From contig JAFXXB010000008.1 in the NCBI GenBank assembly GCA_017542465.1, positions 17,321 through 81,320 of the forward strand: a stretch of 64,000 bases of DNA, written 5' to 3'. Of this stretch, positions 23,944 to 37,665 are shown piece after piece. Below the pieces are notes generated by a model. The model was not told where the DNA came from. It did no database searches and saw only the letters and a list, made by a program, of their open reading frames with translations. Both the position numbers and the translations under genes were made by a program. This stretch comes from Bacilli bacterium (GTDB taxonomy: Bacteria > Bacillota_I > Bacilli_A > RF39 > UBA660). Numbering within the stretch: position 1 is the stretch's first letter; the number at the start of each line of letters is the position of its first letter.

Positions 23944-24798
23944 ATGAAAAAATATGTATTATTAATAGGATTATTAATTATAAGTACATTTGCATTAACA
24001 GGATGTATTAAGAAAGATAATATGGATGATATAAAGATAATTACTACAACATATCCAATTACAAATCTAGCAGAAGAAATATATGGTAATTACTCTACTG
24101 TTACATCTATATATCCAAATGGTGTTAATATTAATGAATATGAAATAACAGATAAACAAATTAAAGAATATGCTAAATCTGATTTATTCATTTATAACGG
24201 ATTAGATGTTAATGAAAAAAGAATAGCTACTAGATTATTAAATCAAAATAAAAAAATTAAACTAATTGATGCCACTCAAGGATTAACTTATTCTTCATCA
24301 TTTGAAGAACTATGGTTATCACCAGCTAATTACTTAATGATGGCTCAAAACATTAAAGTACACTTAAGTGATGAGATTAAATCAACAGTTATTAAAAGGG
24401 ATTTAGATAAGAGATATGAAAACATGAAATTAAAGATATCTAAATATGATGCTCAATTTAAAATAATTGCAGAAAATACTGATAAAAAAGATGTAATAAT
24501 AGCTAATAATTCATTAAAGTTCTTATCTAGATATGGATTTAATATTATTAGTATTGATCCATCAGAAGATAGAATAAGAACAAATACTACTCAAGCAAAA
24601 GAAAACATAAAGAACAATAAAAATAAAACAATATTTGTTATTGATAGTTCAAATGATAAAGTTAATGAAATAACTAAATCACCTACAATAGTAAAATCAA
24701 TGACTATACTATCAGAAGATGATATTAAAAATAATGAAACATATGAAACAATGATGAATAAATTTATAGATAATTTAAGAACTGAGGTGTATTCATAA
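23944..24798 (+). CDS. lipoprotein, function unknown
   Basis: Signal peptide with lipobox (FALTGC). 284 aa. Confidence 0.55.
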   Translation: MKKYVLLIGLLIISTFALTGCIKKDNMDDIKIITTTYPITNLAEEIYGNYSTVTSIYPNGVNINEYEITDKQIKEYAKSDLFIYNGLDVNEKRIATRLLNQNKKIKLIDATQGLTYSSSFEELWLSPANYLMMAQNIKVHLSDEIKSTVIKRDLDKRYENMKLKISKYDAQFKIIAENTDKKDVIIANNSLKFLSRYGFNIISIDPSEDRIRTNTTQAKENIKNNKNKTIFVIDSSNDKVNEITKSPTIVKSMTILSEDDIKNNETYETMMNKFIDNLRTEVYS

Positions 24799-25715
24799 TG
24801 AAAGATTTACTTATATCACATATTGATTTAGATGGAGTATCTCCTAACGTATTATTAAGCTTAACTAATAGAAAATTTGAATATAAGAATATAGAATTAT
24901 CAGATGTAGATAAAACTTTTGATGAATACTTTAAAAAAGATTTAAAGAAATATGAAAACATATATATAGTTGATTTAACATTAACAGAACATGCACATGA
25001 ATTAATTCAGCAATCTAAATTAAATAATATTCATGTATTTGATCATCATGCATCACATGAATTTGCAGTTAATTATGATTACACAGATATTAGAGTTGAA
25101 ATTAACGGAAAGAAAACATGTGGTACTGAATTATTCTATTTATATTTTAAGAAAAAATATAAAGAACTAAATAAACCTAATATAGAAGATTATGTAGATT
25201 TAGTTACTCAATTAGATACATATACATTTAAAGATGAAACTAAAGCTCAAAACTTAAATACTCTACATGATTTATTAGGTCATCAAGAATTTATTAAAAC
25301 TATTACAAGAAGATTAAAGAAAAATAATAAAACATTTGAGTTTACTCAATTTGAAAAGAAACTATTCAAGATTCAAAGAAATAAAATAGATAGATATATT
25401 CTAAATAAAGAATCTGAAATGAAAAAGTTTATTATTGATGGACATAAATGTGGTGTTGTATTTGCTGAAACAAATAAATCAGAATTAGGTAATTATTTAT
25501 CTGGTAAGAATCCTGATTTAGATTTAATAGTATTATGTGATGCTTCATCAAGATTTAGTTTAAGAACTAAAAAAGATGATGTTGATTTAAATGTATTTGC
25601 TTCTCACTACTCTGGTGGTGGACATAAAAAAGCTGCTGGTATTATGTTTAGTGATGAAAACAGAAAAAAAATAATAGAAAACTTTTTTAAAGAAGTAAAA
25701 GAAGATACTAACTAG
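24798..25715 (+). CDS. nrnA: DHH/DHHA1-family phosphoesterase (NrnA-like nanoRNase / pAp phosphatase)
   Basis: 305 aa. DHH motif (FDHHASHE) and DHHA1 GGGH motif (YSGGGHKKAAG). Start overlaps the upstream stop (ATGA). Confidence 0.65.
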   Translation: MKDLLISHIDLDGVSPNVLLSLTNRKFEYKNIELSDVDKTFDEYFKKDLKKYENIYIVDLTLTEHAHELIQQSKLNNIHVFDHHASHEFAVNYDYTDIRVEINGKKTCGTELFYLYFKKKYKELNKPNIEDYVDLVTQLDTYTFKDETKAQNLNTLHDLLGHQEFIKTITRRLKKNNKTFEFTQFEKKLFKIQRNKIDRYILNKESEMKKFIIDGHKCGVVFAETNKSELGNYLSGKNPDLDLIVLCDASSRFSLRTKKDDVDLNVFASHYSGGGHKKAAGIMFSDENRKKIIENFFKEVKEDTN

Positions 25716-25771: not shown

Positions 25772-25864
25772 GCAGCAGTACTCAAGAGGTCGAAGAGGGA
25801 TCCCTGCTAAGGATTTAGGCGGGCGAATGTTCGCGCGGAGGTTCAAATCCTCTCTGCTGCGCCA
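25772..25864 (+). tRNA. tRNA-Ser (anticodon GCU), class II tRNA with long variable arm, CCA encoded
   Basis: 7-bp acceptor stem GCAGCAG/CUGCUGC, discriminator G, 3' CCA. T-arm GGAGG-TTCAAAT-CCTCT. Anticodon stem GATCC/GGATT with loop CT-GCT-AA (U33, anticodon GCT, A37). Long variable stem-loop of about 21 nt. 93 nt in total. Confidence 0.9.
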
Positions 25865-25878
25865 TTAATTGAATAAAA

Positions 25879-25907
25879 AAGAAGATATTAATTATCTTCT
25901 TTTTTTG
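25879..25907. terminator. bidirectional rho-independent terminator (AAGAAGATA-TTAAT-TATCTTCTT, with an A-run 5' and a T-run 3')
   Basis: Perfect 9-bp stem flanked by AAAAAA and TTTTTTT. Shared by tRNA-Ser (+) and the convergent Cys-rich gene (-). Confidence 0.6.
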
Positions 25908-26091
25908 TTTCACAATTACATTCTTTGCATGCACATTCTTTTTCTTCAGAACAATTACATTCTTTGTTCTCTTCACATCCACATGTACATTCTTCATTGC
26001 ACTTACATTCACCTTCACAAGTACATTCTTTACCTTCTTGGCATCCACATGTGCATTCTTCAGTACAATTACACTTCTTTACTTCTTCCAT
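25888..26091 (-). CDS. small Cys-rich, Glu-rich protein (67 aa, 18 Cys); metallothionein-like candidate metal-binding protein
   Basis: AGGAGG RBS 8 nt upstream of ATG (MEEVKK...). Eight repeats of (K/E)EC-x-C, e.g. EECTCGC, KECTC, GECKC. The listed ORF start (MNRRLIM) is probably a false upstream extension. Confidence 0.55.
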   Translation of the reverse strand: MEEVKKCNCTEECTCGCQEGKECTCEGECKCNEECTCGCEENKECNCSEEKECACKECNCETKKEDN

Positions 26092-26101
26092 GATTAACCT
26101 C

Positions 26102-26650
26102 CTATTCATATATTCTTTCTAAATTAATATTTATTTTAGTTCCTGTTGATCTTATATTATCTGTATATTGATAATAATCATCACCAACATTAACTTTATT
26201 ATATTCATATATTTCTATCTTATCTAGGTCTAATCCTTCAATTTTATACATTCTAGGGTATTTCTTTACAACACTTATTAATAAATCTTCTAATGTATCA
26301 AATACATTATTATCAATTAGCCAAGATGATTCCATTAATACATATTTATTATCTTGTTCAACTACACAGAATGTATGTCTAGCAATCTTATTAGGTACAT
26401 CATATATAATATTATATTTTTTATATGATATGTTTTCTTTATCTAATAAGTAAGCTATTACTTCAGTTTGTTCATAACAAGTACCAACTTTATATTTTAA
26501 AGTATCATCAACACTCATTAATCTATAATTATCTAAATAATAATCTCTCTTTGCATTTTTATGAACAACTCCATCTGATGTAACAAAACCATAATGAATT
26601 TGTTTTATTTCATTTAATATATTTAATAACTTTTCATTCATATTAATCAC
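26102..26650 (-). CDS. hypothetical protein with transglutaminase/NAT-like Cys-His motifs (182 aa)
   Basis: Candidate nucleophile in GTCYEQTEVIAYLL and downstream IARHTFCVVE...ESSW. Resembles the papain-like Cys-His-Asp arrangement of transglutaminase-like proteins and arylamine N-acetyltransferases. Motif-level only. Confidence 0.35.
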   Translation of the reverse strand: MINMNEKLLNILNEIKQIHYGFVTSDGVVHKNAKRDYYLDNYRLMSVDDTLKYKVGTCYEQTEVIAYLLDKENISYKKYNIIYDVPNKIARHTFCVVEQDNKYVLMESSWLIDNNVFDTLEDLLISVVKKYPRMYKIEGLDLDKIEIYEYNKVNVGDDYYQYTDNIRSTGTKININLERIYE

Positions 26651-26670
26651 ATAATTATTATAACATAAAA

Positions 26671-26694
26671 AAGAAGATATTATTTTATCTTCTT
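26671..26694. terminator. rho-independent terminator (AAGAAGATA-loop-TATCTTCTT) after the giant gene
   Basis: 9-bp stem with a 6-nt loop, flanked by an A-run and a T-run. Confidence 0.5.
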
Positions 26695-29600
26695 TTATTC
26701 ATTAGGAATATTATTTATACCTATTTTATCTTTAGCATCTACCTTTTCACTTCTAAAGTTTACATTGTTGGCTTCTGCTATTTTATTTATATCTTGATAT
26801 TCTATTTCTCCTAATGGTAATACTAGTTTCTTGATATCTTCTTCACTTAATAATGACATCTTTTCACTTTCATCAAATACTTGGTTTACTCCTGGTATTA
26901 TCTTATTTCCTTCTTTTCTTGCATATACTCCACATGAGATGTGTCCTATATGTAAGTCTTTTGATACCATCTTTAATGTATCTATTAATACATATTTATT
27001 GTATACCTTATTTAAATCTATTGTTGGATAACTTGTTATTGTCTTATTTATATTATCCTTACTTACTTGAGTTATATCTTGTTCATATAAATCTATTCCA
27101 AGCTTATCACATACTTGTCTTGCATATGTTAATTGATCTAGATTCTTTCCATTATTGATGAATAATGCTGAAACTTTATAATTCTTTTCTTGTAGTAATT
27201 TAGCTGCTACTGCACTTCCTACACTTCCAGAGATTCCAATTAAGACTTTCTTTCTTAACAAGATTGGTAATAACCAGATTAATAATCCTATTATTCCTAA
27301 TCCTCCAATTACTGCTAGAACAATCCACCATGGGAATGGTTTTTTAACATGTATTTCAATGTCATCACCCTTAACCTCTTCTGTGGTTGTTCTTCTTCTT
27401 GTTGTTTCAGTAGTTTCTTCTGTTGTTGTTTCCTCTGTAGTTTCTTCCGTTGGTTTTGTTGTATCTGTTGGAGTTGAAGTTTTTCTAGGTGGTCGAGTTC
27501 CAGTTTCATTAGATGTACTTGAACTAGTTGTAGTTGTAGGTATTTCATCAAAGTATAACTTAAATACTGTTCCATCTTCTACTTCAGGATCTATTTCAAC
27601 TACTCCTCCATGAGAAGGTAATTGATTATCATTCATGAATACTCTTTTTAATGAGAATCCATCATATAAAGTATGAGCATTTTCAAAGTATTGTACATCT
27701 ACCTCTATCTTTTCATTAGATAATATTTGTACTTCTTTAGTCTTTTCAAATGAGTCCACTTTAGCAGTATTTTTATATAATTCTACCGTATATTTAATTG
27801 TTTTAACTTGATTATCATCAATAGATGAAGCAATATTTAATACACCATAGTTATGAGCAGTCATACCTATATTAATATCTTGATTAGTCCAAACAGATAA
27901 ATCTTCTTTTGTCTTAATTTTAGGATTATCAGTTAATGCAACTTTATTATCTAAATTATTAACTTGATATTCATTTGTTTTATAAGCAAAAGTTGGTTGA
28001 ATTAATGATTTAAAGAATCTAACAATTGCTTTACCAGCATTTGCAATAATATTTGATAATGAATTATCAGTAGATATAACCTGACCAGTAACTTTAGTAT
28101 ATGAATTACCAGTTATCGCTGCGGCACCTCTAATAATTGGTGAATTATTATTACATTTTCCTATTTCACCAATAATAAGAACACCTTGATTATCGATTAC
28201 AATACCATTTGCATTTTCCATTGAAGATGTATCATTTGGCTCTATTTCACCATTTGGATCATCAATAATAGTTAATGTACCTTGATTTATAATTCCTTTT
28301 TCAAGTCCATCAAAATTTAATGTATGACCTTCTAAAGCAAGTGTAATATTCACTGAACTTGGAATAGTTACAGTGCTTTCAACTAATACATCATTTCCGA
28401 CTTTGATTGTTCCAGTTTTATTTGTTTGTTCACTTATTACATCAATAACATCATTTAAAGAAGCAAAATATTGATTATTATACTCAAATGAATTATCTAA
28501 ATGAGACTCAACAGCTAAATAACTCTTATTTCCAGCTATAATAACATGATAATGTTCAGGAACATTATTAGCTAAACCACTTATAGGTGTATTTGGTGAT
28601 TCAAATACTCCATCATAGAAGTTAAACGTTCCATCTCCTTTATATAATCCAACATTTTTACCATAGAAATATGGTTTAGTTGTGCTTACTACTCCATCAT
28701 TAACTCCTATAGTCAACGTTGAAGATGCTGATTGTTTTATAGCATATATGTTATTTGCATCGCTAACAGATGAATTTGCATTTACTACTACATCATTTAA
28801 TAGCGTTACATTACTATTTCCTGATACTTCTATAAGGGCAGCATATGTGTTTAAATCACCGTTGATATTTGCTTTTTTAACTAACAATTGAGCGTAATCA
28901 CTAGTATTAATACCTGATACAGAACCATAAGTACATGTTAAATCTATATTAATATCATCAACAACAGTCTTTGAATTATATAAATCTAATGCTACACCAC
29001 CATTAGTAGTTGTCGTTGTATAATTCATGTGTTTAATATAAACGTTACTATATCCTTCAGCACGAATACCAACATTTTTATTAGTGTAAGTTATATTTTC
29101 AATATTTAAATCAGATGATTGACTTACTGTTATACCTCTTCCAACTGGGGATCCTGTTTGTTTAATTTCTCCATTCTTAACAAGAACTTCACTATTAAGA
29201 GTATAAATAAAGGAATCACTACCAGTATGGGTTACATCCATATCATTAATAACAATACTTCCTCTATGCAATAAACTCTTTTTATTATTTCCATCAATGA
29301 TTTGAACATCATTCAAATATGCTGAACCATTACAAACAACATGTAAATAATATTGACTTCCACCAGTTAAACTTGTTGTAAACTCTCCATATCTATCTAT
29401 TACATCAGTTGTATACACAGGAGTAGCTAATGTTGTAGGAGGTTCTACACTATCGGTAATATAGAATTTATAAGTTGTTTTGGCTAAAGAATTAAATAAT
29501 ACTTTTATTTCTAATGTATTGGAATAATCTCTCAAATCAATAGGTATATAATATGATGTCCTACTATAGCTATCAATTACACCATTTGTAATACTTATAT

Positions 29601-32600
29601 CATATCCATTGGTCTTAGTTGGTATGTCAGGATCTGCTATTGAATATACCATAGGTGTGGCAGTTCCACCTTTAAATACCGGATTGTTAAATTCAACGTA
29701 ACCACCCACATTATAAACAGCCTTACCAAATGCATCATCATATTTATCAGCTCTATCATTAACTGATAATTCAACACCATTTAGATATAATTTAGCATCT
29801 CTTTTATTTGTTATTAATCTAGACTTATCATAACCATTTGTACTAAGAGACAAATTATTTCCTAAAGTCATAGTATTCTCATTACTTAATATAGGATTAG
29901 AATTTAGTCCCAATGTTACATTCATTGAACCATTATTAATATCTAATATACCTTTATTAGTTATATATTTATCATCTTTTGATGATATAGTTTTTGAGTT
30001 TAAATCTAAAATAATATTCTTATTATTATTTATAGTTACACTTTCATATAGTGAAAAATCATTTAGTATTTTTAAATTACATACTTGATTATCAGGGCAA
30101 GAATTAATAGCATCTTGTAACTTATTAAATTCTATATTATCATCTACATTTAATACATTATTACCTTTAGTTAATGTCCAAGTAATATATGATTCTTCAC
30201 TTCCTTTATTAAGGATATAACCATTAGGAATATTATTAAGACCATAATCATATATCTTTTTACCTTTTAGTATTCCATCATAGAAATCAAATCTCGTATT
30301 CATTCCACGTAATGTTTCTACTTGACCAAATATTAATGGAGAAGTTGTACTTACATGACCATCCTCATCTGTATCATCATTAGTTATTGTTATATTAGCA
30401 TTAACATCATCACTTACATAGATACCATAAACATTTGAAATAACTGATGTATTAATAATTTTTTGTTCATGTTCATTATCAACATAAATACCATAAGCTC
30501 TTTCATTTGGTCCAGTTACATTTATAGTTGAATTAGAAATTACCGCTTTAGAATTATCATCAATAAACACACCACGATTATATGAATCCCAATGAGACGT
30601 AGATAAAGTAATATTTGTATTATTAATATTAGCTACTGCTCTATCATGTAAATATATACCATTAATTCTATCAAATAATCCCTCACCATTTACAATACTT
30701 ATATTAAAACCATCAGTATTAACAATACCATTAGCAGCTTCTATACCATTTGGGTAATAATTACCTTTGTTATTATATATTTCACCACCAAAGCCATTAA
30801 ATACAGCATAACTTTCGACTAATACACTTGTGTTTTTATTTAAAATCTTTCCACCTGTCATATTAACCACAGCAGAATAACCTTCGCGAATTCCAGTTCC
30901 ACCTGTTGAATTTGTTGAATTTGTAATAATTCCACCTTGATAATCTATAATGCTATTTTCACTAAATAGAATCTCACCATCACCAGCATCCTTATAATCA
31001 ACATTCTTAACTACCACATTACCATGATTAATTAAATCAATTATTTCACCATTATATTCAATATTAATATTTATAATATGATGATCACTTCCATATGTAG
31101 ATCCAAAGTGTAAATAGTATTTTTCTCCACCTTGAATAGTTGTTGAATATGATTGAACACTATATGATTTATTACTATCATTATCATTTACAAAAGGAGT
31201 ATCAGCTGATGTAGGTGCCGTTGAAGTTTTAGTAATCCAAGCCTTAATTTTATAACCACCTAGTGATATATTTGAGAAGTTTAATTTAACCTCACCATTA
31301 TAATCAGTTAAATCTAAAGGTAAGCATCCAGATGATCCCCAATAATCTAAATTAATTACACCATTTTTATAAGTAATATCACCTGAATTATAAACAAAAT
31401 TATCCATTTCAACTGGTTTAGCCATTGTATAAATACCACTTGTTGCACCCGATATAGTTTTAGATTTCATTATTGCACCATCAATTTCAACATAACCACC
31501 TATGTTTTTAATTAATGTTCCATCATTTCTTACTTTATTTATATTAGATTTACCACCATTATTTATTAATGTTGCATTATTAATCAAATATAGTTTACCA
31601 GTTTGATTATTTGTAATTAAAGTAGATTTAATAACTTCATAGAAATTAAGTGTTGCACCATCTATCGTTAAAACACCATTATTTTCTATAATAGTTGCAA
31701 AATCAGATGCAGATTCACTATCTAGTAATCCATTCTTAAATGTTATAATACCATTGTTTAAAATATTATATGAATCACTAGTTGTAATTTTCAGATTATT
31801 TAAATCAAAACTAATATTCTTTGTATTTTTAATTTCCAATTGATATCCTAATGAAGTTTGATATAAAAGTTTCAAATTACATAATGTATCTTTTGGACAA
31901 TCATCAACTGCTTTTTGTATTTTTGAATATTTTACACCAGTATCAATATTTTCAACTAAATCCAACTTTTGTAGAACAACAGTATTTAAGTTTCCATCAG
32001 TACCATAAACTAAATCATAATCTTCAGGTCTATCTGATACACCACCATATATTTGAGTTTCACCTTTGATAATACCATCGTAGAAATTAAAGGTTCCGGC
32101 CTTATGATAAATACCATAAGTAGTACCAGATACAACTGGTGTTGTTTGACTTACATCATCATCATTATTTGATAAAGTTATAGTAGAATCACTGTTTTCG
32201 TAAGTTATAATTCCATATACATTCGTAGTACCATTTGCAATTATAGATGATGAATTAACATTTAAATACATAGCTTCAGTTAAACGAACGCCGTATAGAT
32301 TTTTTGAATTTGAACTACCTGTAATATTAATTGATGTATTATTTAAATTAACATAACGAGGAACATATGGATAACCATATTCTGTATCTATACCATATAA
32401 ACTTCCACCGCCACTTAAATTAATACTTCCACCATTCATCGTTAATTTATTTCTATTAGGTCTTACATATATACCTCTAGAATTACTATTAGAATTTGAT
32501 GTTATATTAATATCATCAATATCAACTATTGATTCATCCATATATAATCCAATAAAATCATTTTGTTTAGTATCATCAACAATATCTAAACCATTAATAT

Positions 32601-35600
32601 AACCATATGAACCTGATGAAAATTTTATTGGTTGGTCTTTGTTATATATCAAACCACCTGATGTATATAGTCTTGATCCATGATTAAGTAATATACCTGT
32701 TCCATATCTACTTGTTGTACTATTCTTAATAATACCATCATTGAATGTAAATTTGCCATTATTTAGAATAATTGATGGATTAGTTCCCTTTTCAATCAAG
32801 GTTAAATCATTGGCTACGATATTACCTACATTAAATAAGCTTTTTTCATTATTATTTTGAGTAATAATTATATCTCTAAATACTAATTGACCACTCTCAA
32901 AAACAAAATAATAATTCTTTCCACCCATTACAGTTGTAGATGCAAAACCAATTTCACTCTTATTATTTGAATAGAATTCAGTTAAATTATCTAAATCTTC
33001 ACCTATATAAAATTTAAAACTATCATCAGATAAAGTATTATAATCAATTTTTATCTCAACATTTCCAGAATAATCAGATAAATCAATTGGTAAATAACCA
33101 TGTCCAGTATAATATGTTTTTACAATGCCATTCTCATATGTATAATTATCACCAGATAATTTAGTGAATTTAGGAGGTATTGCTATACCATATATAGCGT
33201 TTGCACTTGCATTTTTACTACTCTTTGAGTAAACATTCATTGTTCCACCATTAATTTCTGAATATCCACCCTCATTATATAAAATATAACCATCTATATT
33301 CCCACCATCAAAGTCATTAATTTGATCATATGTTCCGTCATTTATATATAATTTACCAGTATAATTGTTTTTAAACACTCTAAGGAATCTATAAGTTCCC
33401 GTAGACATTTTCGTATTTTCTCCATTAACGGTCATAATATTATTATTTTCAAATAAAGCTTGCATACTATTAGCTGAAATATTAGATACATCTATATTAT
33501 TAACAGTTACATTACCATTATTTAATAATCCGCTTGTTCTATTAAATTCAAATATTATTTTACAATCACTTATATTTAATGTGTTATTATTAATAATTTG
33601 ATGAGATTTAATTAAACCTTTATTTTCACTATTATCAACTATATTTAATACTCCATTATTAATCAAACCAGCACCTAAATATAAGTTTTTACCATTTAAA
33701 TCAATAGTTATATTTTGACTGTTCTTAATTGTATTTGAATAGTTAGCCATTTCATATAGATTATCAGCTAATACTCTTAATGTCCCAGAATCACCAATAC
33801 TAGTTAATGCATTTCCTATAGAAGAATACATAATTCCTGATTCAACATGTAAAACATTATTTTGTTTTTCCTTAGTTTGTTTAATGAATTTATAATTATC
33901 ATCACTGCCATTCAATAAATAGTATGATTCTTCAATATCATTAATCAAAGTATATGATGCTTCATTTTTACCATATATAATTCCATCATAAAAATTAAAC
34001 ATAGCGGTTGGAGAATAGACACCATATCTTTCCGATTTAATATATCCGGCTTTATCATTATAAACACCATTTTGAGTTCCATAATATATAGTTCCAGAAC
34101 CTGTATTATATATACCATCTGTAACAAATTTAACATGATCAGTAGATTGATTAATAGAAACATCATTAAGATAAATAGGACCGCTACCAACATTATATAT
34201 TCCTCTAATAAGTGATAAAGGTGTTGGTTCAGAATCAAAGAATGAAGCTGCTTGTCCTGTTTCATTTATTGTAACTTGATTTAGTATCAATGTTGATTCA
34301 TTACTCTTTTTTATAGCAGAATATGGATTTATAGGAATCCAACGAGTTTTTGTAGTAATATTTGAATTCATTATGACATTATTAAAAGTTGTTAAACCTG
34401 TATTATCAATATTAATTTGTTGATATGCATTATGATATAATTCTTTTTCATAATTAAATGTAGAATCTGATACAGTTACTGGAAATCTAGATGTATTATT
34501 AAAATCTCCCGTAAACGTAACATGACTTGCGTTAAATGTATAATTATTTTCTACATTATTAATTATTCCACCATTAACATTTATATAAGCCAAATCTTTA
34601 ATGCCATAAGTAGCATCATATACATCTTCATTAGTTATTTGATCAATAGTACCATCTTCTATATTAATTTTTGATTTATAATTATATACCTCATCAATAG
34701 TTCCACCATTAATATAAATTAATCCTTGATTTCTAGCACCAACTCTAGCATTAAAAGTTCCGTTATTAATAGTTATTTTAGCATTATCATTATTGACTAC
34801 AGATTGAGAACAAGACAAAGTTCCACCATTGATTACGATATTGTCAGAAGCAGATGTATTTGATAAACAATAATATGCATTTGATAATTCTCCATCATTT
34901 ATAGTTAGATGACTAATGCTTGTTTCATATGGTATTAATTCAACTTCCTTAACGGTAAATGTGTTTTCACCTGGGCGTGCATCTTTTGTTAAAGGATAAT
35001 ATATATGTAGATATATCTTTCCATCTCTGACTATTCCATCTCTTTCAGCTATTTGATCTCCTCTAGTTTCCCATAAATCAGAACCACCAGTAACAGGATA
35101 GTCACTTGATGAAATATTAACTCGAGCAACTGCATGAACAGGAGCTACGTGATTATATGTTATTCTTGCTTTTACTTTAGTTCCATTTGGTATACCATTT
35201 GTATCTAATTCAACTAATGCATACGCATTTTTTCCTGGATCTAAACTATTATTTGATACTAAATAACCATCTTCATTTACATTAAAACCATAATCAAAAT
35301 CATATTGGGTTTTATTATAAAATGAAGTATATGTTTTTTTGGCACTTTCAACTAGATTATTAGTGTAATAATCATCATTCATTATAGAATAACCAGATGA
35401 ATCATAATAATATGTACAATGAGCTCCTTGAATTAAGCCACCATTTACAGTCACAGATCCACCATTATTTTCTAATGCACCTCGACATCCAGTATTTCCT
35501 CCTCTAGTTGAAATAATGGATCCTCCATTTATTGTGATATTTGCATCATGTTCATTATAAATAACTTGTGTAATCTCTGTTTGATATACACCATTATCTA

Positions 35601-37665
35601 TAGTTAAATCTGCGCCCGTTTTATTATATATAGCATATGAATAAACATTATACTCTTTAAAAAATACAGTTTCACCAGTTGAATCTCTTAACTCAAGTTT
35701 TCCAGAATTTGTAATTAATGGTTGTTTTACTGAATTGACAAGTTTATAACTATTCATATCAAGTAATATATTCTTAGTATTATCAATTTCAATTGTGTGA
35801 TCTTTTGTTAAATCTTTAACAACATCTATTTCAATTTGAGTAGTTGAATCACCTTTATATTTATTTGCAGCTTCAATTGCATCTTCAAGTAGTGTATATC
35901 TAGTTTTACCGATTAAAGCTTCAATATTAGATACTAATTCTAATGACATTTTATATCCATTTTCATCAGCAAGAGTACTTGGATCATATAAAGGAGGAGT
36001 ATCATTTACAGCTCCATCAACTGCTACTCTACCAATTATAATACCATCATAATAATTAAATTCTCCATGTTCATCGACAAAAACTCCGCCATCCTTACCA
36101 TAAATATAAGGAGAATTATGATCAGGATACTCAATATGTGCCATATCAGTTGAATTATCTTGTCCTACATTTAATATACCATTATTGTCAATTTTAATTG
36201 CATAATTATTATCACTAGTTACTTTACCAGTACTACTTCCGTGATTATACTTACTTATATCAAAAGTTGTATCACTAAAATAATCATTTAGATTTAATTT
36301 ATCATCAATTATCTTTAATTTCGCTCCATCATTAATCTTAATAGTAGAATCATATTTTGTCGAATGAACATTATAACCATTTAAATCCAATGTTAGGTTA
36401 ACACTTTCTACATCTAAATGTTGATTAGTTATGTCATATTCTATTTGAGCAATTATCTCATCGTCACTTGTAATTCCATTATTAATTAAATCATCATGAA
36501 ATGCTTTTAACGAATAATACTCTCTACCTATTAATTCCGCTTTTGGTGAAGATAAAATTAATATAACTGGTTCTAATTCTATAGGATCTATTTCAGTAAT
36601 ATTTCTTTGTTCAATTGAATAGTTTCCTGCATTATCATATGCATGAAAATAATATGTAGCATTTTCATTTACAGTTACAGAATATGTATTATCACCTGTA
36701 GCAGCAATATAATCATCATCGGATATAACTGACGAAATTGAAAAAGCATATTTACTAATTCCGGATTTACCATTTTCCAAAGTAGCATTTTGATCAACAA
36801 TAGAATAAGAAATTGTAGCTTCATCATGAGTAGCATTTAAAGTGACACCATTGATAATTATACTAGGTTTTAATTTATCAATATTTGTAATATGAAGAAC
36901 AGATATCTTAGAATATCCATCTGTTTTATATTTAGATTTGGCATATAAATAACCATTAGTACTTACCTTTAAATAATTATTCTTATCATATACGACAAAA
37001 TTCTTGGAACTTAATTCTTCATCGCTTAATTCAGTAGTTGAATAATAATATGATATTTCAACATCCTCATTAGCTCTAAGTTTAATTTTATCCTCATTAT
37101 CAGTATATAAAAAAACTATTTTATCATTATCAGATAAAGAAACCTCTTTATTATCACTATCATATAATTTATCTATAAAAGCATGTAAATTATCTTGATA
37201 ATCTATTTTTATAATAGCCTTGCTATATGAAGATTTTAAGCCTTCTCTTTTTTCTGTTGGTATAATAGTAATATCATAAGTGTTACCTTTTTCAATGCCA
37301 TCTAATTTGACTATTACACCATCACCATCTAACACAATTTTATTATTAGGAGCATCAATTATTTCATGCGTATTTACATTCAAATATTGAATAGTTATTT
37401 CTGATGGTGCAGATATTTTGACTTCATTTCCATCAATATTCTCTTTAGATTCATGATCTAAGTACTCTAGAATAAAAGATACACTTGTAGGATTATCTTC
37501 TCCATCAACAAAAGCAGATATGTTATTCATACCTTCATCTAGAGAATAAGATTTATCAAAAAGTTTACTACCCAAAAAAGATAATAGTATTACTATTAAT
37601 AATATAGGTATGACTGTAAAAAGTAATTTTTTAGGTATATTCTTCTTGTCTTTCATTCTAGTCAC
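26695..37665 (-). CDS. giant modular cell-surface protein (3656 aa): signal peptide/anchor, five beta-helix-like modules, Thr-rich stalk, C-terminal TM helix, cytoplasmic degenerate MnmA-like domain
   Basis: Uninterrupted 10.97-kb ORF. N-terminal KK + hydrophobic signal. Asn/Gly/Thr/Tyr-rich segments with recurrent NxG(T/S)(L/I) rungs typical of right-handed beta-helices. The motif F(N/D)(F/Y)YDG(I/V) recurs five times, at nt about 36043-36060, 33978-33995, 32075-32092, 30278-30295 and 28608-28625. TT(E)-rich linker at about 27360-27530. TM WWIVLAVIGGLGIIGLLIWLL at about 27262-27335. C-terminal 215 aa resemble the MnmA N-terminal domain. Confidence 0.8.
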   Translation of the reverse strand: MTRMKDKKNIPKKLLFTVIPILLIVILLSFLGSKLFDKSYSLDEGMNNISAFVDGEDNPTSVSFILEYLDHESKENIDGNEVKISAPSEITIQYLNVNTHEIIDAPNNKIVLDGDGVIVKLDGIEKGNTYDITIIPTEKREGLKSSYSKAIIKIDYQDNLHAFIDKLYDSDNKEVSLSDNDKIVFLYTDNEDKIKLRANEDVEISYYYSTTELSDEELSSKNFVVYDKNNYLKVSTNGYLYAKSKYKTDGYSKISVLHITNIDKLKPSIIINGVTLNATHDEATISYSIVDQNATLENGKSGISKYAFSISSVISDDDYIAATGDNTYSVTVNENATYYFHAYDNAGNYSIEQRNITEIDPIELEPVILILSSPKAELIGREYYSLKAFHDDLINNGITSDDEIIAQIEYDITNQHLDVESVNLTLDLNGYNVHSTKYDSTIKINDGAKLKIIDDKLNLNDYFSDTTFDISKYNHGSSTGKVTSDNNYAIKIDNNGILNVGQDNSTDMAHIEYPDHNSPYIYGKDGGVFVDEHGEFNYYDGIIIGRVAVDGAVNDTPPLYDPSTLADENGYKMSLELVSNIEALIGKTRYTLLEDAIEAANKYKGDSTTQIEIDVVKDLTKDHTIEIDNTKNILLDMNSYKLVNSVKQPLITNSGKLELRDSTGETVFFKEYNVYSYAIYNKTGADLTIDNGVYQTEITQVIYNEHDANITINGGSIISTRGGNTGCRGALENNGGSVTVNGGLIQGAHCTYYYDSSGYSIMNDDYYTNNLVESAKKTYTSFYNKTQYDFDYGFNVNEDGYLVSNNSLDPGKNAYALVELDTNGIPNGTKVKARITYNHVAPVHAVARVNISSSDYPVTGGSDLWETRGDQIAERDGIVRDGKIYLHIYYPLTKDARPGENTFTVKEVELIPYETSISHLTINDGELSNAYYCLSNTSASDNIVINGGTLSCSQSVVNNDNAKITINNGTFNARVGARNQGLIYINGGTIDEVYNYKSKINIEDGTIDQITNEDVYDATYGIKDLAYINVNGGIINNVENNYTFNASHVTFTGDFNNTSRFPVTVSDSTFNYEKELYHNAYQQINIDNTGLTTFNNVIMNSNITTKTRWIPINPYSAIKKSNESTLILNQVTINETGQAASFFDSEPTPLSLIRGIYNVGSGPIYLNDVSINQSTDHVKFVTDGIYNTGSGTIYYGTQNGVYNDKAGYIKSERYGVYSPTAMFNFYDGIIYGKNEASYTLINDIEESYYLLNGSDDNYKFIKQTKEKQNNVLHVESGIMYSSIGNALTSIGDSGTLRVLADNLYEMANYSNTIKNSQNITIDLNGKNLYLGAGLINNGVLNIVDNSENKGLIKSHQIINNNTLNISDCKIIFEFNRTSGLLNNGNVTVNNIDVSNISANSMQALFENNNIMTVNGENTKMSTGTYRFLRVFKNNYTGKLYINDGTYDQINDFDGGNIDGYILYNEGGYSEINGGTMNVYSKSSKNASANAIYGIAIPPKFTKLSGDNYTYENGIVKTYYTGHGYLPIDLSDYSGNVEIKIDYNTLSDDSFKFYIGEDLDNLTEFYSNNKSEIGFASTTVMGGKNYYFVFESGQLVFRDIIITQNNNEKSLFNVGNIVANDLTLIEKGTNPSIILNNGKFTFNDGIIKNSTTSRYGTGILLNHGSRLYTSGGLIYNKDQPIKFSSGSYGYINGLDIVDDTKQNDFIGLYMDESIVDIDDINITSNSNSNSRGIYVRPNRNKLTMNGGSINLSGGGSLYGIDTEYGYPYVPRYVNLNNTSINITGSSNSKNLYGVRLTEAMYLNVNSSSIIANGTTNVYGIITYENSDSTITLSNNDDDVSQTTPVVSGTTYGIYHKAGTFNFYDGIIKGETQIYGGVSDRPEDYDLVYGTDGNLNTVVLQKLDLVENIDTGVKYSKIQKAVDDCPKDTLCNLKLLYQTSLGYQLEIKNTKNISFDLNNLKITTSDSYNILNNGIITFKNGLLDSESASDFATIIENNGVLTIDGATLNFYEVIKSTLITNNQTGKLYLINNATLINNGGKSNINKVRNDGTLIKNIGGYVEIDGAIMKSKTISGATSGIYTMAKPVEMDNFVYNSGDITYKNGVINLDYWGSSGCLPLDLTDYNGEVKLNFSNISLGGYKIKAWITKTSTAPTSADTPFVNDNDSNKSYSVQSYSTTIQGGEKYYLHFGSTYGSDHHIININIEYNGEIIDLINHGNVVVKNVDYKDAGDGEILFSENSIIDYQGGIITNSTNSTGGTGIREGYSAVVNMTGGKILNKNTSVLVESYAVFNGFGGEIYNNKGNYYPNGIEAANGIVNTDGFNISIVNGEGLFDRINGIYLHDRAVANINNTNITLSTSHWDSYNRGVFIDDNSKAVISNSTINVTGPNERAYGIYVDNEHEQKIINTSVISNVYGIYVSDDVNANITITNDDTDEDGHVSTTSPLIFGQVETLRGMNTRFDFYDGILKGKKIYDYGLNNIPNGYILNKGSEESYITWTLTKGNNVLNVDDNIEFNKLQDAINSCPDNQVCNLKILNDFSLYESVTINNNKNIILDLNSKTISSKDDKYITNKGILDINNGSMNVTLGLNSNPILSNENTMTLGNNLSLSTNGYDKSRLITNKRDAKLYLNGVELSVNDRADKYDDAFGKAVYNVGGYVEFNNPVFKGGTATPMVYSIADPDIPTKTNGYDISITNGVIDSYSRTSYYIPIDLRDYSNTLEIKVLFNSLAKTTYKFYITDSVEPPTTLATPVYTTDVIDRYGEFTTSLTGGSQYYLHVVCNGSAYLNDVQIIDGNNKKSLLHRGSIVINDMDVTHTGSDSFIYTLNSEVLVKNGEIKQTGSPVGRGITVSQSSDLNIENITYTNKNVGIRAEGYSNVYIKHMNYTTTTTNGGVALDLYNSKTVVDDINIDLTCTYGSVSGINTSDYAQLLVKKANINGDLNTYAALIEVSGNSNVTLLNDVVVNANSSVSDANNIYAIKQSASSTLTIGVNDGVVSTTKPYFYGKNVGLYKGDGTFNFYDGVFESPNTPISGLANNVPEHYHVIIAGNKSYLAVESHLDNSFEYNNQYFASLNDVIDVISEQTNKTGTIKVGNDVLVESTVTIPSSVNITLALEGHTLNFDGLEKGIINQGTLTIIDDPNGEIEPNDTSSMENANGIVIDNQGVLIIGEIGKCNNNSPIIRGAAAITGNSYTKVTGQVISTDNSLSNIIANAGKAIVRFFKSLIQPTFAYKTNEYQVNNLDNKVALTDNPKIKTKEDLSVWTNQDINIGMTAHNYGVLNIASSIDDNQVKTIKYTVELYKNTAKVDSFEKTKEVQILSNEKIEVDVQYFENAHTLYDGFSLKRVFMNDNQLPSHGGVVEIDPEVEDGTVFKLYFDEIPTTTTSSSTSNETGTRPPRKTSTPTDTTKPTEETTEETTTEETTETTRRRTTTEEVKGDDIEIHVKKPFPWWIVLAVIGGLGIIGLLIWLLPILLRKKVLIGISGSVGSAVAAKLLQEKNYKVSALFINNGKNLDQLTYARQVCDKLGIDLYEQDITQVSKDNINKTITSYPTIDLNKVYNKYVLIDTLKMVSKDLHIGHISCGVYARKEGNKIIPGVNQVFDESEKMSLLSEEDIKKLVLPLGEIEYQDINKIAEANNVNFRSEKVDAKDKIGINNIPNE

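Follow-up and report, generated by a model that had tools for sequence, protein, structure and literature searches.

To our knowledge, very few types of bacterial metallothionein are known, namely SmtA/BmtA, MymT and the Pseudomonas metallothioneins. A paper from 2026 confines the bacterial metallothioneins to SmtA/BmtA, MymT and a few others (PMC13578184), and in recent reviews the cytosolic sinks for Cu(I) are limited to MymT, CutC, CopZ and Csp (PMC11672702; introduction of PMC13578184). MymT is a mycobacterial Cu(I) metallothionein and is controlled by RicR (PMC3944814; review PMC11672702). Here we describe a gene for a cysteine-rich protein of 67 amino acids (aa), and the family to which it belongs, found in a stretch of 64,000 nucleotides (nt) from a Bacilli bacterium of the RF39 lineage (assembly GCA_017542465.1, contig JAFXXB010000008.1, positions 17,321 to 81,320), which is referred to below as the window. 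The protein is probably a genuine metal-thiolate protein of a new family; on the best reading of its sequence it would be cytoplasmic, intrinsically unstructured and metallothionein-like, and its family has not been described previously.

The gene is defined by the following features:

25888-26091, minus strand: coding sequence of the 67-aa Cys-rich, metallothionein-like protein, with a TAA stop at 25888-25890
26098-26103, minus strand: AGGAGG ribosome-binding site of the 67-aa gene, read from the sequence

The open frame spans 25888-26109 on the minus strand, and the ATG at 26091 was chosen as the start because the AGGAGG site fits it with a spacer of 6 nt and because the gene calls on sibling contigs are 67 aa long; the same gene was called, with identical sequence, on three independent contigs. 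An earlier note on this DNA had reported a 67-aa open reading frame (ORF) with 27% Cys, a strong AGGAGG site and eight CxC units, and the frame, the position of the site, the sibling-contig calls and the count of units all agree with it. The product runs from MEEVKK to KKEDN (full sequence MEEVKKCNCTEECTCGCQEGKECTCEGECKCNEECTCGCEENKECNCSEEKECACKECNCETKKEDN) and has 18 Cys (26.9%), 19 Glu and 9 Lys with no His and no Phe, Trp or Tyr, giving a pI of 4.35 and a mass of 7.5 kDa. Two of the eight CxC units are extended to CTCGC, and the Cys residues are arranged as two 7-Cys units (CNCTEECTCGCQEGKECTC and CKCNEECTCGCEENKECNC) followed by a 4-Cys tail, CAC-KE-CNC. Mean Cys content over the 41 long ORFs of the window is 0.89%, and this frame has the highest Cys content of all 342 open frames. 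No signal peptide was detected in the 67-aa protein or in the 179-aa product of the gene upstream of it. The AlphaFold2 model of the 67-aa protein is coil without secondary structure (predicted local distance difference test, pLDDT, 51), which fits a metallothionein, as an apo-thionein is expected to be unstructured. Low mass, very high Cys content, CxC motifs, no aromatic residues and no predicted fold are the features by which metallothioneins are recognised operationally, and all of them are found in this protein. Two plus-strand ORFs over the same region (25869-26093 and 25925-26122) were set aside as mirror artefacts of the repetitive coding sequence. The window as a whole has a GC content of 26.7%, and its long ORFs end in TAA (22), TAG (17) or TGA (2; n=41).

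Homologues of the protein share a unit of seven Cys, C-x-C-x(2-4)-C-x-C-G-C-x2-G-x2-C-x-C, which occurs one to seven times per protein; we refer to them as the CTCGC family. The core used to define the family, C-x-C-x(2-4)-C-x-C-G-C-x2-[GNKD]-x2-C-x-C, is present twice in the window protein and at least once in 78 of 83 loci, and the alignment columns C9, C13, C15, G16, C17, Q18, G20, C23 and C25 are invariant or nearly so. A search with the single sequence returned ten small Cys-rich proteins with the pattern CNCxxxCTCGCQEGKECTC, and a profile search returned 174 clusters (90% identity), nearly all of them unnamed and without Pfam domains. An exhaustive hidden Markov model (HMM) search of 1.84 billion representatives gave only 79 clusters (50% identity), and the scarcity of eukaryotic metallothioneins among the matches indicates that the profile is specific. 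The earlier note had allowed that homologues with conserved Cys spacing might be lacking; they were found across phyla. The 13-aa core CxCGCQEGKxCxC is exact in 63 loci with GC contents from 0.22 to 0.70, and its third codon positions carry 1.16 bits of variation against about 0.1 bits at positions 1 and 2. As these loci were picked by their protein motif, the low variation at positions 1 and 2 is partly by construction and the synonymous variation is the informative part. Judged from this pattern of sequence conservation, the 67-aa ORF is a real gene under protein-level selection.

In a scan of one genome per GTDB species, 134 species carried the family. Most carriers are metagenome-assembled genomes (MAGs) from gut and rumen that are labelled Bacilli, 'Tenericutes' or Erysipelotrichaceae, and further carriers are Akkermansia, Muribaculaceae, Rikenellaceae, Clostridia, Christensenella, gut Alphaproteobacteria, Gastranaerophilales, a planctomycete and the cultured actinobacterium Propioniciclava tarda (DSM 22130). 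The view in the earlier note that bacterial metallothioneins are rare in Firmicutes needs to be qualified accordingly, since this Cys-rich family is found mostly in low-GC Bacilli MAGs from gut and rumen. One family member of 63 aa (L005:5000-7154) lies between genes with ORF6N and Bro-N domains, a context typical of prophage regions, which hints at mobility. A tblastn search with a family member against phage and plasmid collections gave no match, although the low-complexity filter may hide some, and a full-text literature search with motif strings of the family core returned no paper.

Scans of the 67-aa protein and of longer relatives with Pfam and NCBIfam gave nothing above threshold. The best match to a curated model was to Metallothio_5 (PF02067), with E-values of 0.02-0.6 and 10-16 bits (top 15.6) against a cut-off of 25 bits. 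This model describes the Mtn proteins of Diptera, which resemble the family in composition and in local patterns (CNCGxDCKCG) and provide its sole weak profile matches; the resemblance is most likely a convergent, low-complexity similarity. SmtA/BmtA (PF02069, family 14) are likewise small bacterial metal-thiolate proteins, and smtA is paired with ArsR/SmtB while two CTCGC members are fused to ArsR-type regulators. SmtA differs, however, in having both Cys and His, a zinc-finger-like fold and aromatic residues, whereas the 67-aa protein has no His, no aromatics and no predicted fold. No match to PF02069 (Metallothio_Pro) was found for the window protein at E-values up to 1 or for five relatives at E-values up to 10, in line with the statement in the earlier note that the protein is unlike SmtA/BmtA.

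Neighbouring genes were surveyed by calling ORFs in the 83 non-redundant loci and clustering the neighbours. The only neighbour family that was always immediate and on the same strand encodes a CsoR/RcnR-type repressor of about 90-100 aa, present at 12 of the 83 loci (PF02583, E-value 1e-26; best NCBIfam match RicR). Six Bacilli MAGs have it 11-14 nt upstream of the Cys-rich gene and six MAGs of gut Alphaproteobacteria have it downstream; two gene orders in two phyla speak for a functional link more than for inherited synteny. All 12 retain the Cys...His...Cys arrangement of ligands seen in Cu(I)-sensing CsoR. Genes for an ABC-F ATPase and an XRE-type helix-turn-helix (HTH) protein also recur near the family, at variable distances, and were treated as background synteny.

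The module also occurs as an in-frame part of larger proteins, as found by in-frame extension and Pfam scans, and several of these fusions concern metal. It is C-terminal on ArsR-type HTH regulators at two loci, where three Cys-rich units are fused to the regulator (L009:4725-5189 and L028:4680-5168); about 3 kb downstream are a separate CadC-like ArsR with ELCVCD and a P-type ATPase with SCPCALILSVP (L009:8209-10186 and L028:8183-10165). Four units are N-terminal to a CopZ-like HMA domain encoded directly before an HMA-carrying P-type ATPase (L022, from Propioniciclava tarda; also L031), and in L081 a SlyD-like FKBP protein with a His-rich tail has the module after that tail. Cys and His are intermingled in many of the fused tails. 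The earlier note had proposed a novel metal-binding or redox polypeptide, and the CsoR neighbours together with the ArsR, HMA and SlyD fusions tie the family to metal handling. As far as gene context can tell, the CsoR, CopZ and CopA-type contexts favour Cu(I), and the ArsR fusions with the CadA-like ATPase (SCPCALILSVP, about 3 kb away in L009 and L028) favour Zn/Cd.

Other fusions involve core cellular proteins. The module forms the N-terminus of GrpE within the hrcA-grpE-dnaK operon in ten species (L012, L014, L019, L036, L047, L050, L054, L065, L075 and L086) and a Cys/His-rich C-terminal tail of histidyl-tRNA synthetase (HisRS) at three loci (L026, L044 and L056), and it precedes a MinD/ParA-like ATPase in L060; these three architectures appear to be unreported. 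It is also C-terminal on YlbF-like proteins of Akkermansia (six loci), N-terminal on membrane SIMPL proteins (four loci), and present on DoxX and DeoC proteins, and some versions carry a signal peptide or a transmembrane anchor. In Clostridia, proteins of about 200 aa have Cys-rich modules on both sides of a conserved central domain (L041:4608-5234 and L051:4494-5153; …NDLNVAIIKNNKDLLLNE.CCTCINIMLSNDGRILTSFLGCHNPYIVEQLEKAQK…), and no Pfam match was found for the L041 protein.

The family can thus be set beside the cytosolic copper proteins named above. Like MymT, its stand-alone members are small cytoplasmic Cys-rich bacterial proteins, and a CsoR/RicR-type repressor gene often adjoins them. 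There is, however, no detectable sequence relation to MymT: the family consists of CxC-x3-CxCGC-x5-CxC repeats without His and is found mainly in gut anaerobes, and the copy in the window has no adjacent regulator. Csp and CopZ sequester or chaperone Cu(I) in the cytosol through Cys thiolates, and the L022 protein, with its CopZ-like HMA domain and four N-terminal units, joins the two kinds directly. In contrast to the unstructured, CxC-rich CTCGC module, Csp proteins are folded four-helix bundles with CxxxC motifs, and CopZ, with one CxxC, folds like a ferredoxin. A 'thioredoxin-metallothionein chimera' described in a 2026 paper was considered and contains an SmtA-type domain, not a member of the CTCGC family. 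From sequence, the CTCGC proteins would represent a new sequence family inside the known functional kind 'metallothionein', one that is unusually promiscuous as a domain.

The surroundings of the gene in the window are made up of the following features:

26102-26641, minus strand: coding sequence of a 179-aa cytoplasmic, transglutaminase-fold cysteine peptidase-like protein with invariant C55, H89 and E104
26657-26665, minus strand: predicted extended -10 promoter element TGtTATAAT, 15 nt before the ATG of the 179-aa gene and directly after the upstream terminator
26669-26696, minus strand: terminator-like hairpin with T-run of the giant gene (-9.9 kcal/mol, z -3.6)
25875-25905, both strands: bidirectional terminator-like hairpin common to the Cys-rich gene (minus) and tRNA-Ser (plus), with a 13-bp stem (-13.4 and -13.7 kcal/mol, z about -5)
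25772-25864, plus strand: tRNA-Ser(GCT), convergent with the Cys-rich gene
26695-37665, minus strand: giant ORF of 3656 aa, upstream of the 179-aa gene on the same strand

The open frame of the neighbour, 26102-26650 on the minus strand, gives 182 aa from a GTG, which is the length given in the earlier note; the ATG at 26641 was taken as the true start because all close homologues are 179 aa long. The identical 179-aa protein is in GenBank as MBR6072844.1, 'hypothetical protein [Bacilli bacterium]'. The nucleophile-like Cys in GTCYEQ and the downstream His that the earlier note had pointed out did stand: both C55 (at the start of helix 55-68) and H89 (KIARHT, in strand 88-96) are invariant in 18 sequences, with positions taken from the alignment and the model. 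E104 is invariant as well and is a candidate third catalytic element. With 18 homologues, AlphaFold2 modelled the protein at pLDDT 91.5, and a Foldseek search of the PDB placed the cysteine protease CPR-C4 at the top (7ob7/7pjo; E-values 7e-5 to 1e-4, probability 1.00, TMq 0.59-0.60), followed by about 20 vasohibin chains and, more weakly, by LapG (E-value about 9e-3), arylamine N-acetyltransferases, PNGase and TglA, all of which share the transglutaminase/papain-like fold. At the sequence level, the profile of the 179-aa family had no significant match in the PDB. Against PF04473 (DUF553), the window protein gave no match at E-values up to 1, and two homologues scored above the cut-off of 20.5 bits (P0030, 26.3 bits; the L016 enzyme, 21.5 bits). 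The protein is therefore confidently modelled as a transglutaminase-fold cysteine peptidase-like protein, closest to CPR-C4 and the vasohibins and perhaps distantly related to PF04473, which bears out at the level of fold the papain/transglutaminase-like assignment of the earlier note. In L001 another protein of 182 aa is encoded upstream of the Cys-rich gene; it is unrelated to the window enzyme and has the same length by coincidence.

CPR-C4 has a nucleophile/His pair at C61/H93 and a positively charged pocket that was read as implying an acidic substrate (PMC9108980). The spacing of the pair is similar to that of C55/H89, and the 179-aa protein is likewise small and cytoplasmic, with a very acidic protein, the 67-aa product, encoded beside it. 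Sequence identity of the 179-aa protein to CPR-C4 and the vasohibins is, however, only 10-19%.

The order of enzyme gene and then Cys-rich gene, with a junction of 10-30 nt, is found in two genomic contexts. In one, htpG or the giant gene lies upstream and the enzymes are 68-100% identical (the window, L006, L058, L089-92 and L095-97); in the other, rplS-lepB lies upstream and the enzyme is 34% identical (L016). In the window the TAG stop of the 179-aa gene shares its last two bases with the first two of the AGGAGG site, and an equally tight junction of stop and ribosome-binding site is present in relatives. The TGnTATAAT element is kept in relatives about 15-25 nt before the start codon of the enzyme and after the terminator of the preceding gene, whichever gene that is. 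On the other side, the final codons and the stop codon of the Cys-rich gene run into the minus-strand 5' arm of the hairpin at 25875-25905, and because this hairpin folds equally on both strands it could terminate both the small gene and the tRNA, so that the shared terminator proposed in the earlier note is plausible. A consensus terminator scan, which needs GC-rich stems, reported no site and missed this hairpin because its stem is AT-rich. Taken together, this suggests that the 179-aa and 67-aa genes form an autonomous two-gene unit and are co-transcribed.

Several further observations were made around this unit. The hairpins at 26669-26696 and 25875-25905 have nearly identical arms (AAGAAGATA / TATCTTCTT), which could be a duplicated terminator cassette or the footprint of an insertion that brought in the giant gene. 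At the C-terminus of the giant protein (26695-27250), a transmembrane anchor is followed in frame by an MnmA-like HUP/PP-loop domain of about 185 aa (PF03054, E-value 8e-16) with a degenerate nucleotide-binding motif, SGSVGS; the gene call on the sibling contig L095 also has PF03054, and this part could be a real cytoplasmic domain or a captured fragment of mnmA. In several relatives the Cys-rich gene is followed by a gene for a small single-pass membrane protein with a Ser/Thr-rich tail (L089:1695-2024, L058:5296-5625 and L092:3970-4230); the window has no such gene, and the tRNA comes next. Across the tRNA, at 23944-25715 on the plus strand, genes for a ZnuA-like metal-binding lipoprotein (PF01297, E-value 5e-35) and a DHH/DHHA1 phosphoesterase, which have junction base 24798 in common, converge on the Cys-rich gene, with the ZnuA-like gene 1 kb away. 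This arrangement is syntenic in L006, L055, L089, L092 and L095, i.e. in close relatives only, and no ABC permease or ATPase gene was seen beside the ZnuA-like gene in the examined stretch.

A number of observations weigh against a metal-thiolate protein with a partner enzyme. No metal sensor, exporter or HMA gene lies beside the operon in the window, in which a search for CsoR, ArsR and HMA was negative, and the promoter looks constitutive, without a recognisable operator. A CsoR neighbour is present at no more than about a quarter of some 46 stand-alone loci. Sensors of Ni/Co, formaldehyde and persulfide also belong to the CsoR family, so that copper does not follow from such a neighbour alone. 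No metal logic is obvious in the fusions to GrpE, HisRS, MinD-like, YlbF, DeoC and SIMPL proteins, which could instead reflect a different function, for instance in sensing redox state or oxidants or in binding Fe-S. As to the enzyme, syntenic sisters keep the Cys-rich gene without it (L055, after htpG; L030, after lepB), and the enzyme occurs without the Cys-rich gene in L087/88 and L093/94. The pairing is real but facultative, and it is adjacency alone that suggests a partnership. Alternatively, the module might be a thiol buffer for redox, persulfide or oxidant stress or an Fe-S-binding tail, with the CsoR-like neighbours acting as CstR- or FrmR-type sensors of reactive sulfur or electrophiles. 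This would suit the anaerobic, sulfide-rich gut habitats of the family, the non-metal sensors within the CsoR family, the fusion of one member (P0113) to Fer4 domains, the presence of flavodoxin and DUF362 genes within a few genes at five or six loci, and perhaps the fusions to the chaperone cofactor GrpE, which could fit redox sensing. We consider it unlikely, as the CsoR-like neighbours match RicR best and have retained the Cys-His-Cys ligands that are typical of Cu(I) sensors, the HMA/CopZ proteins beside P-type ATPases and the ArsR and His-rich SlyD fusions are specifically metal-related, CxC spacing is typical of metal-thiolate clusters and not of Fe-S motifs, and flavodoxin and DUF362 are not immediate neighbours. 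There is practically no probability that this is only an open frame arising by chance, or an antisense feature, in repetitive, low-complexity DNA: several frames on both strands are open across 25869-26122, and the exact 67-aa sequence had no match in an exact-match look-up, but the strong ribosome-binding site, the conserved Cys spacing, the homologues across phyla with variation at synonymous sites and the identical gene calls on three contigs all speak for a real gene.

Two further explanations concern the neighbouring enzyme. The earlier note had read the order of giant gene, Cys-His enzyme and Cys-rich peptide as a module for surface-protein maturation and had proposed that its conservation be checked; such a module would work as LapG does on the adhesin LapA. 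The gene order fits in the window, L006, L092 and L095, and the fold matches include LapG, a transglutaminase-like protease that acts on a giant adhesin. Against this, a separate terminator follows the giant gene and a separate promoter precedes the enzyme gene, and the gene upstream of the enzyme is htpG in L058, L089/90, L093 and L096. In L096 (1834-2026), htpG is followed by 193 nt that include a remnant of about 130 nt and then by identical 179-aa and 67-aa genes with no giant gene, which shows that the giant gene is a strain-level insertion/deletion polymorphism; the three-gene arrangement is not kept, and the giant gene is not part of the two-gene unit. LapG is periplasmic, whereas the enzyme lacks a signal peptide and is closest in fold to the cytoplasmic CPR-C4 and the vasohibins, and a periplasmic or secreted protease tied to a giant adhesin, as in LapG-LapA, is not what these genes encode, so that surface-protein maturation is extremely unlikely. 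Alternatively, the Cys-rich peptide could be the precursor of a ribosomally synthesised and post-translationally modified peptide (RiPP), with the adjacent Cys-His enzyme as leader peptidase or maturase. A small Cys-rich ORF directly after an enzyme of papain/transglutaminase fold, with translational coupling, would be in keeping with this, and Streptococcus TglA is among the weak fold matches (rank 40). It is nonetheless very unlikely, given that no radical-SAM enzyme, cyclodehydratase, lanthionine synthetase or dedicated exporter recurs in the 83 neighbourhoods and most family members have no such enzyme nearby. Unlike RiPP precursors, the module is an in-frame domain of GrpE, HisRS, ArsR and CopZ-like proteins, and there is no division into leader and core, the peptide being Cys-rich almost from residue 7.

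We therefore return to a metal-thiolate protein. In this case the 18 thiolates would most likely enclose soft metal ions (Cu(I) and/or Zn(II)/Cd(II)) as metal-thiolate clusters, and the protein would most likely serve as a cytosolic buffer or store of metal; if known metallothioneins are a guide, its capacity may be about six divalent ions, or more Cu(I) ions. Transcription of the two-gene unit would start at the extended -10 promoter past the upstream terminator and end at the hairpin common with tRNA-Ser. More tentatively, the 179-aa enzyme may act on the acidic Cys-rich protein by trimming it or turning it over, for instance so as to release metal, though on present sequence data a direct enzyme-substrate relation between the two is doubtful. 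Joined into one scheme, the module would be a horizontally spread 'plug-in' metal-thiolate domain of gut anaerobes which, when free, acts as a new metallothionein, CsoR-controlled in some lineages, and when fused to GrpE, HisRS, MinD-like, YlbF, ArsR and CopZ proteins couples core functions to metal or thiol status, with a dedicated vasohibin-like peptidase processing or degrading it and so releasing the metal in the lineage of the window; that all of this holds together is unlikely.

Copper and zinc are feed additives and tools of host nutritional immunity, and a further metallothionein family would fill a gap in what is understood of copper and zinc handling by gut and rumen anaerobes. The family is unnamed in databases, is present in Bacilli, Clostridia, Akkermansia, Bacteroidales, gut Alphaproteobacteria, Melainabacteria and an actinobacterium, and has recurrent connections with CsoR, ArsR, CopZ and P-type ATPase genes. 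Its proteins are tiny and easily synthesised, and one carrier, Propioniciclava tarda, is in culture. If the peptidase does release metal from the 67-aa protein, it would be the first case of a bacterial metallothionein that has a protease to itself. One would not have expected fusions to GrpE, HisRS and MinD-like proteins, and they offer possible links of metal status to proteostasis, translation and cell division.

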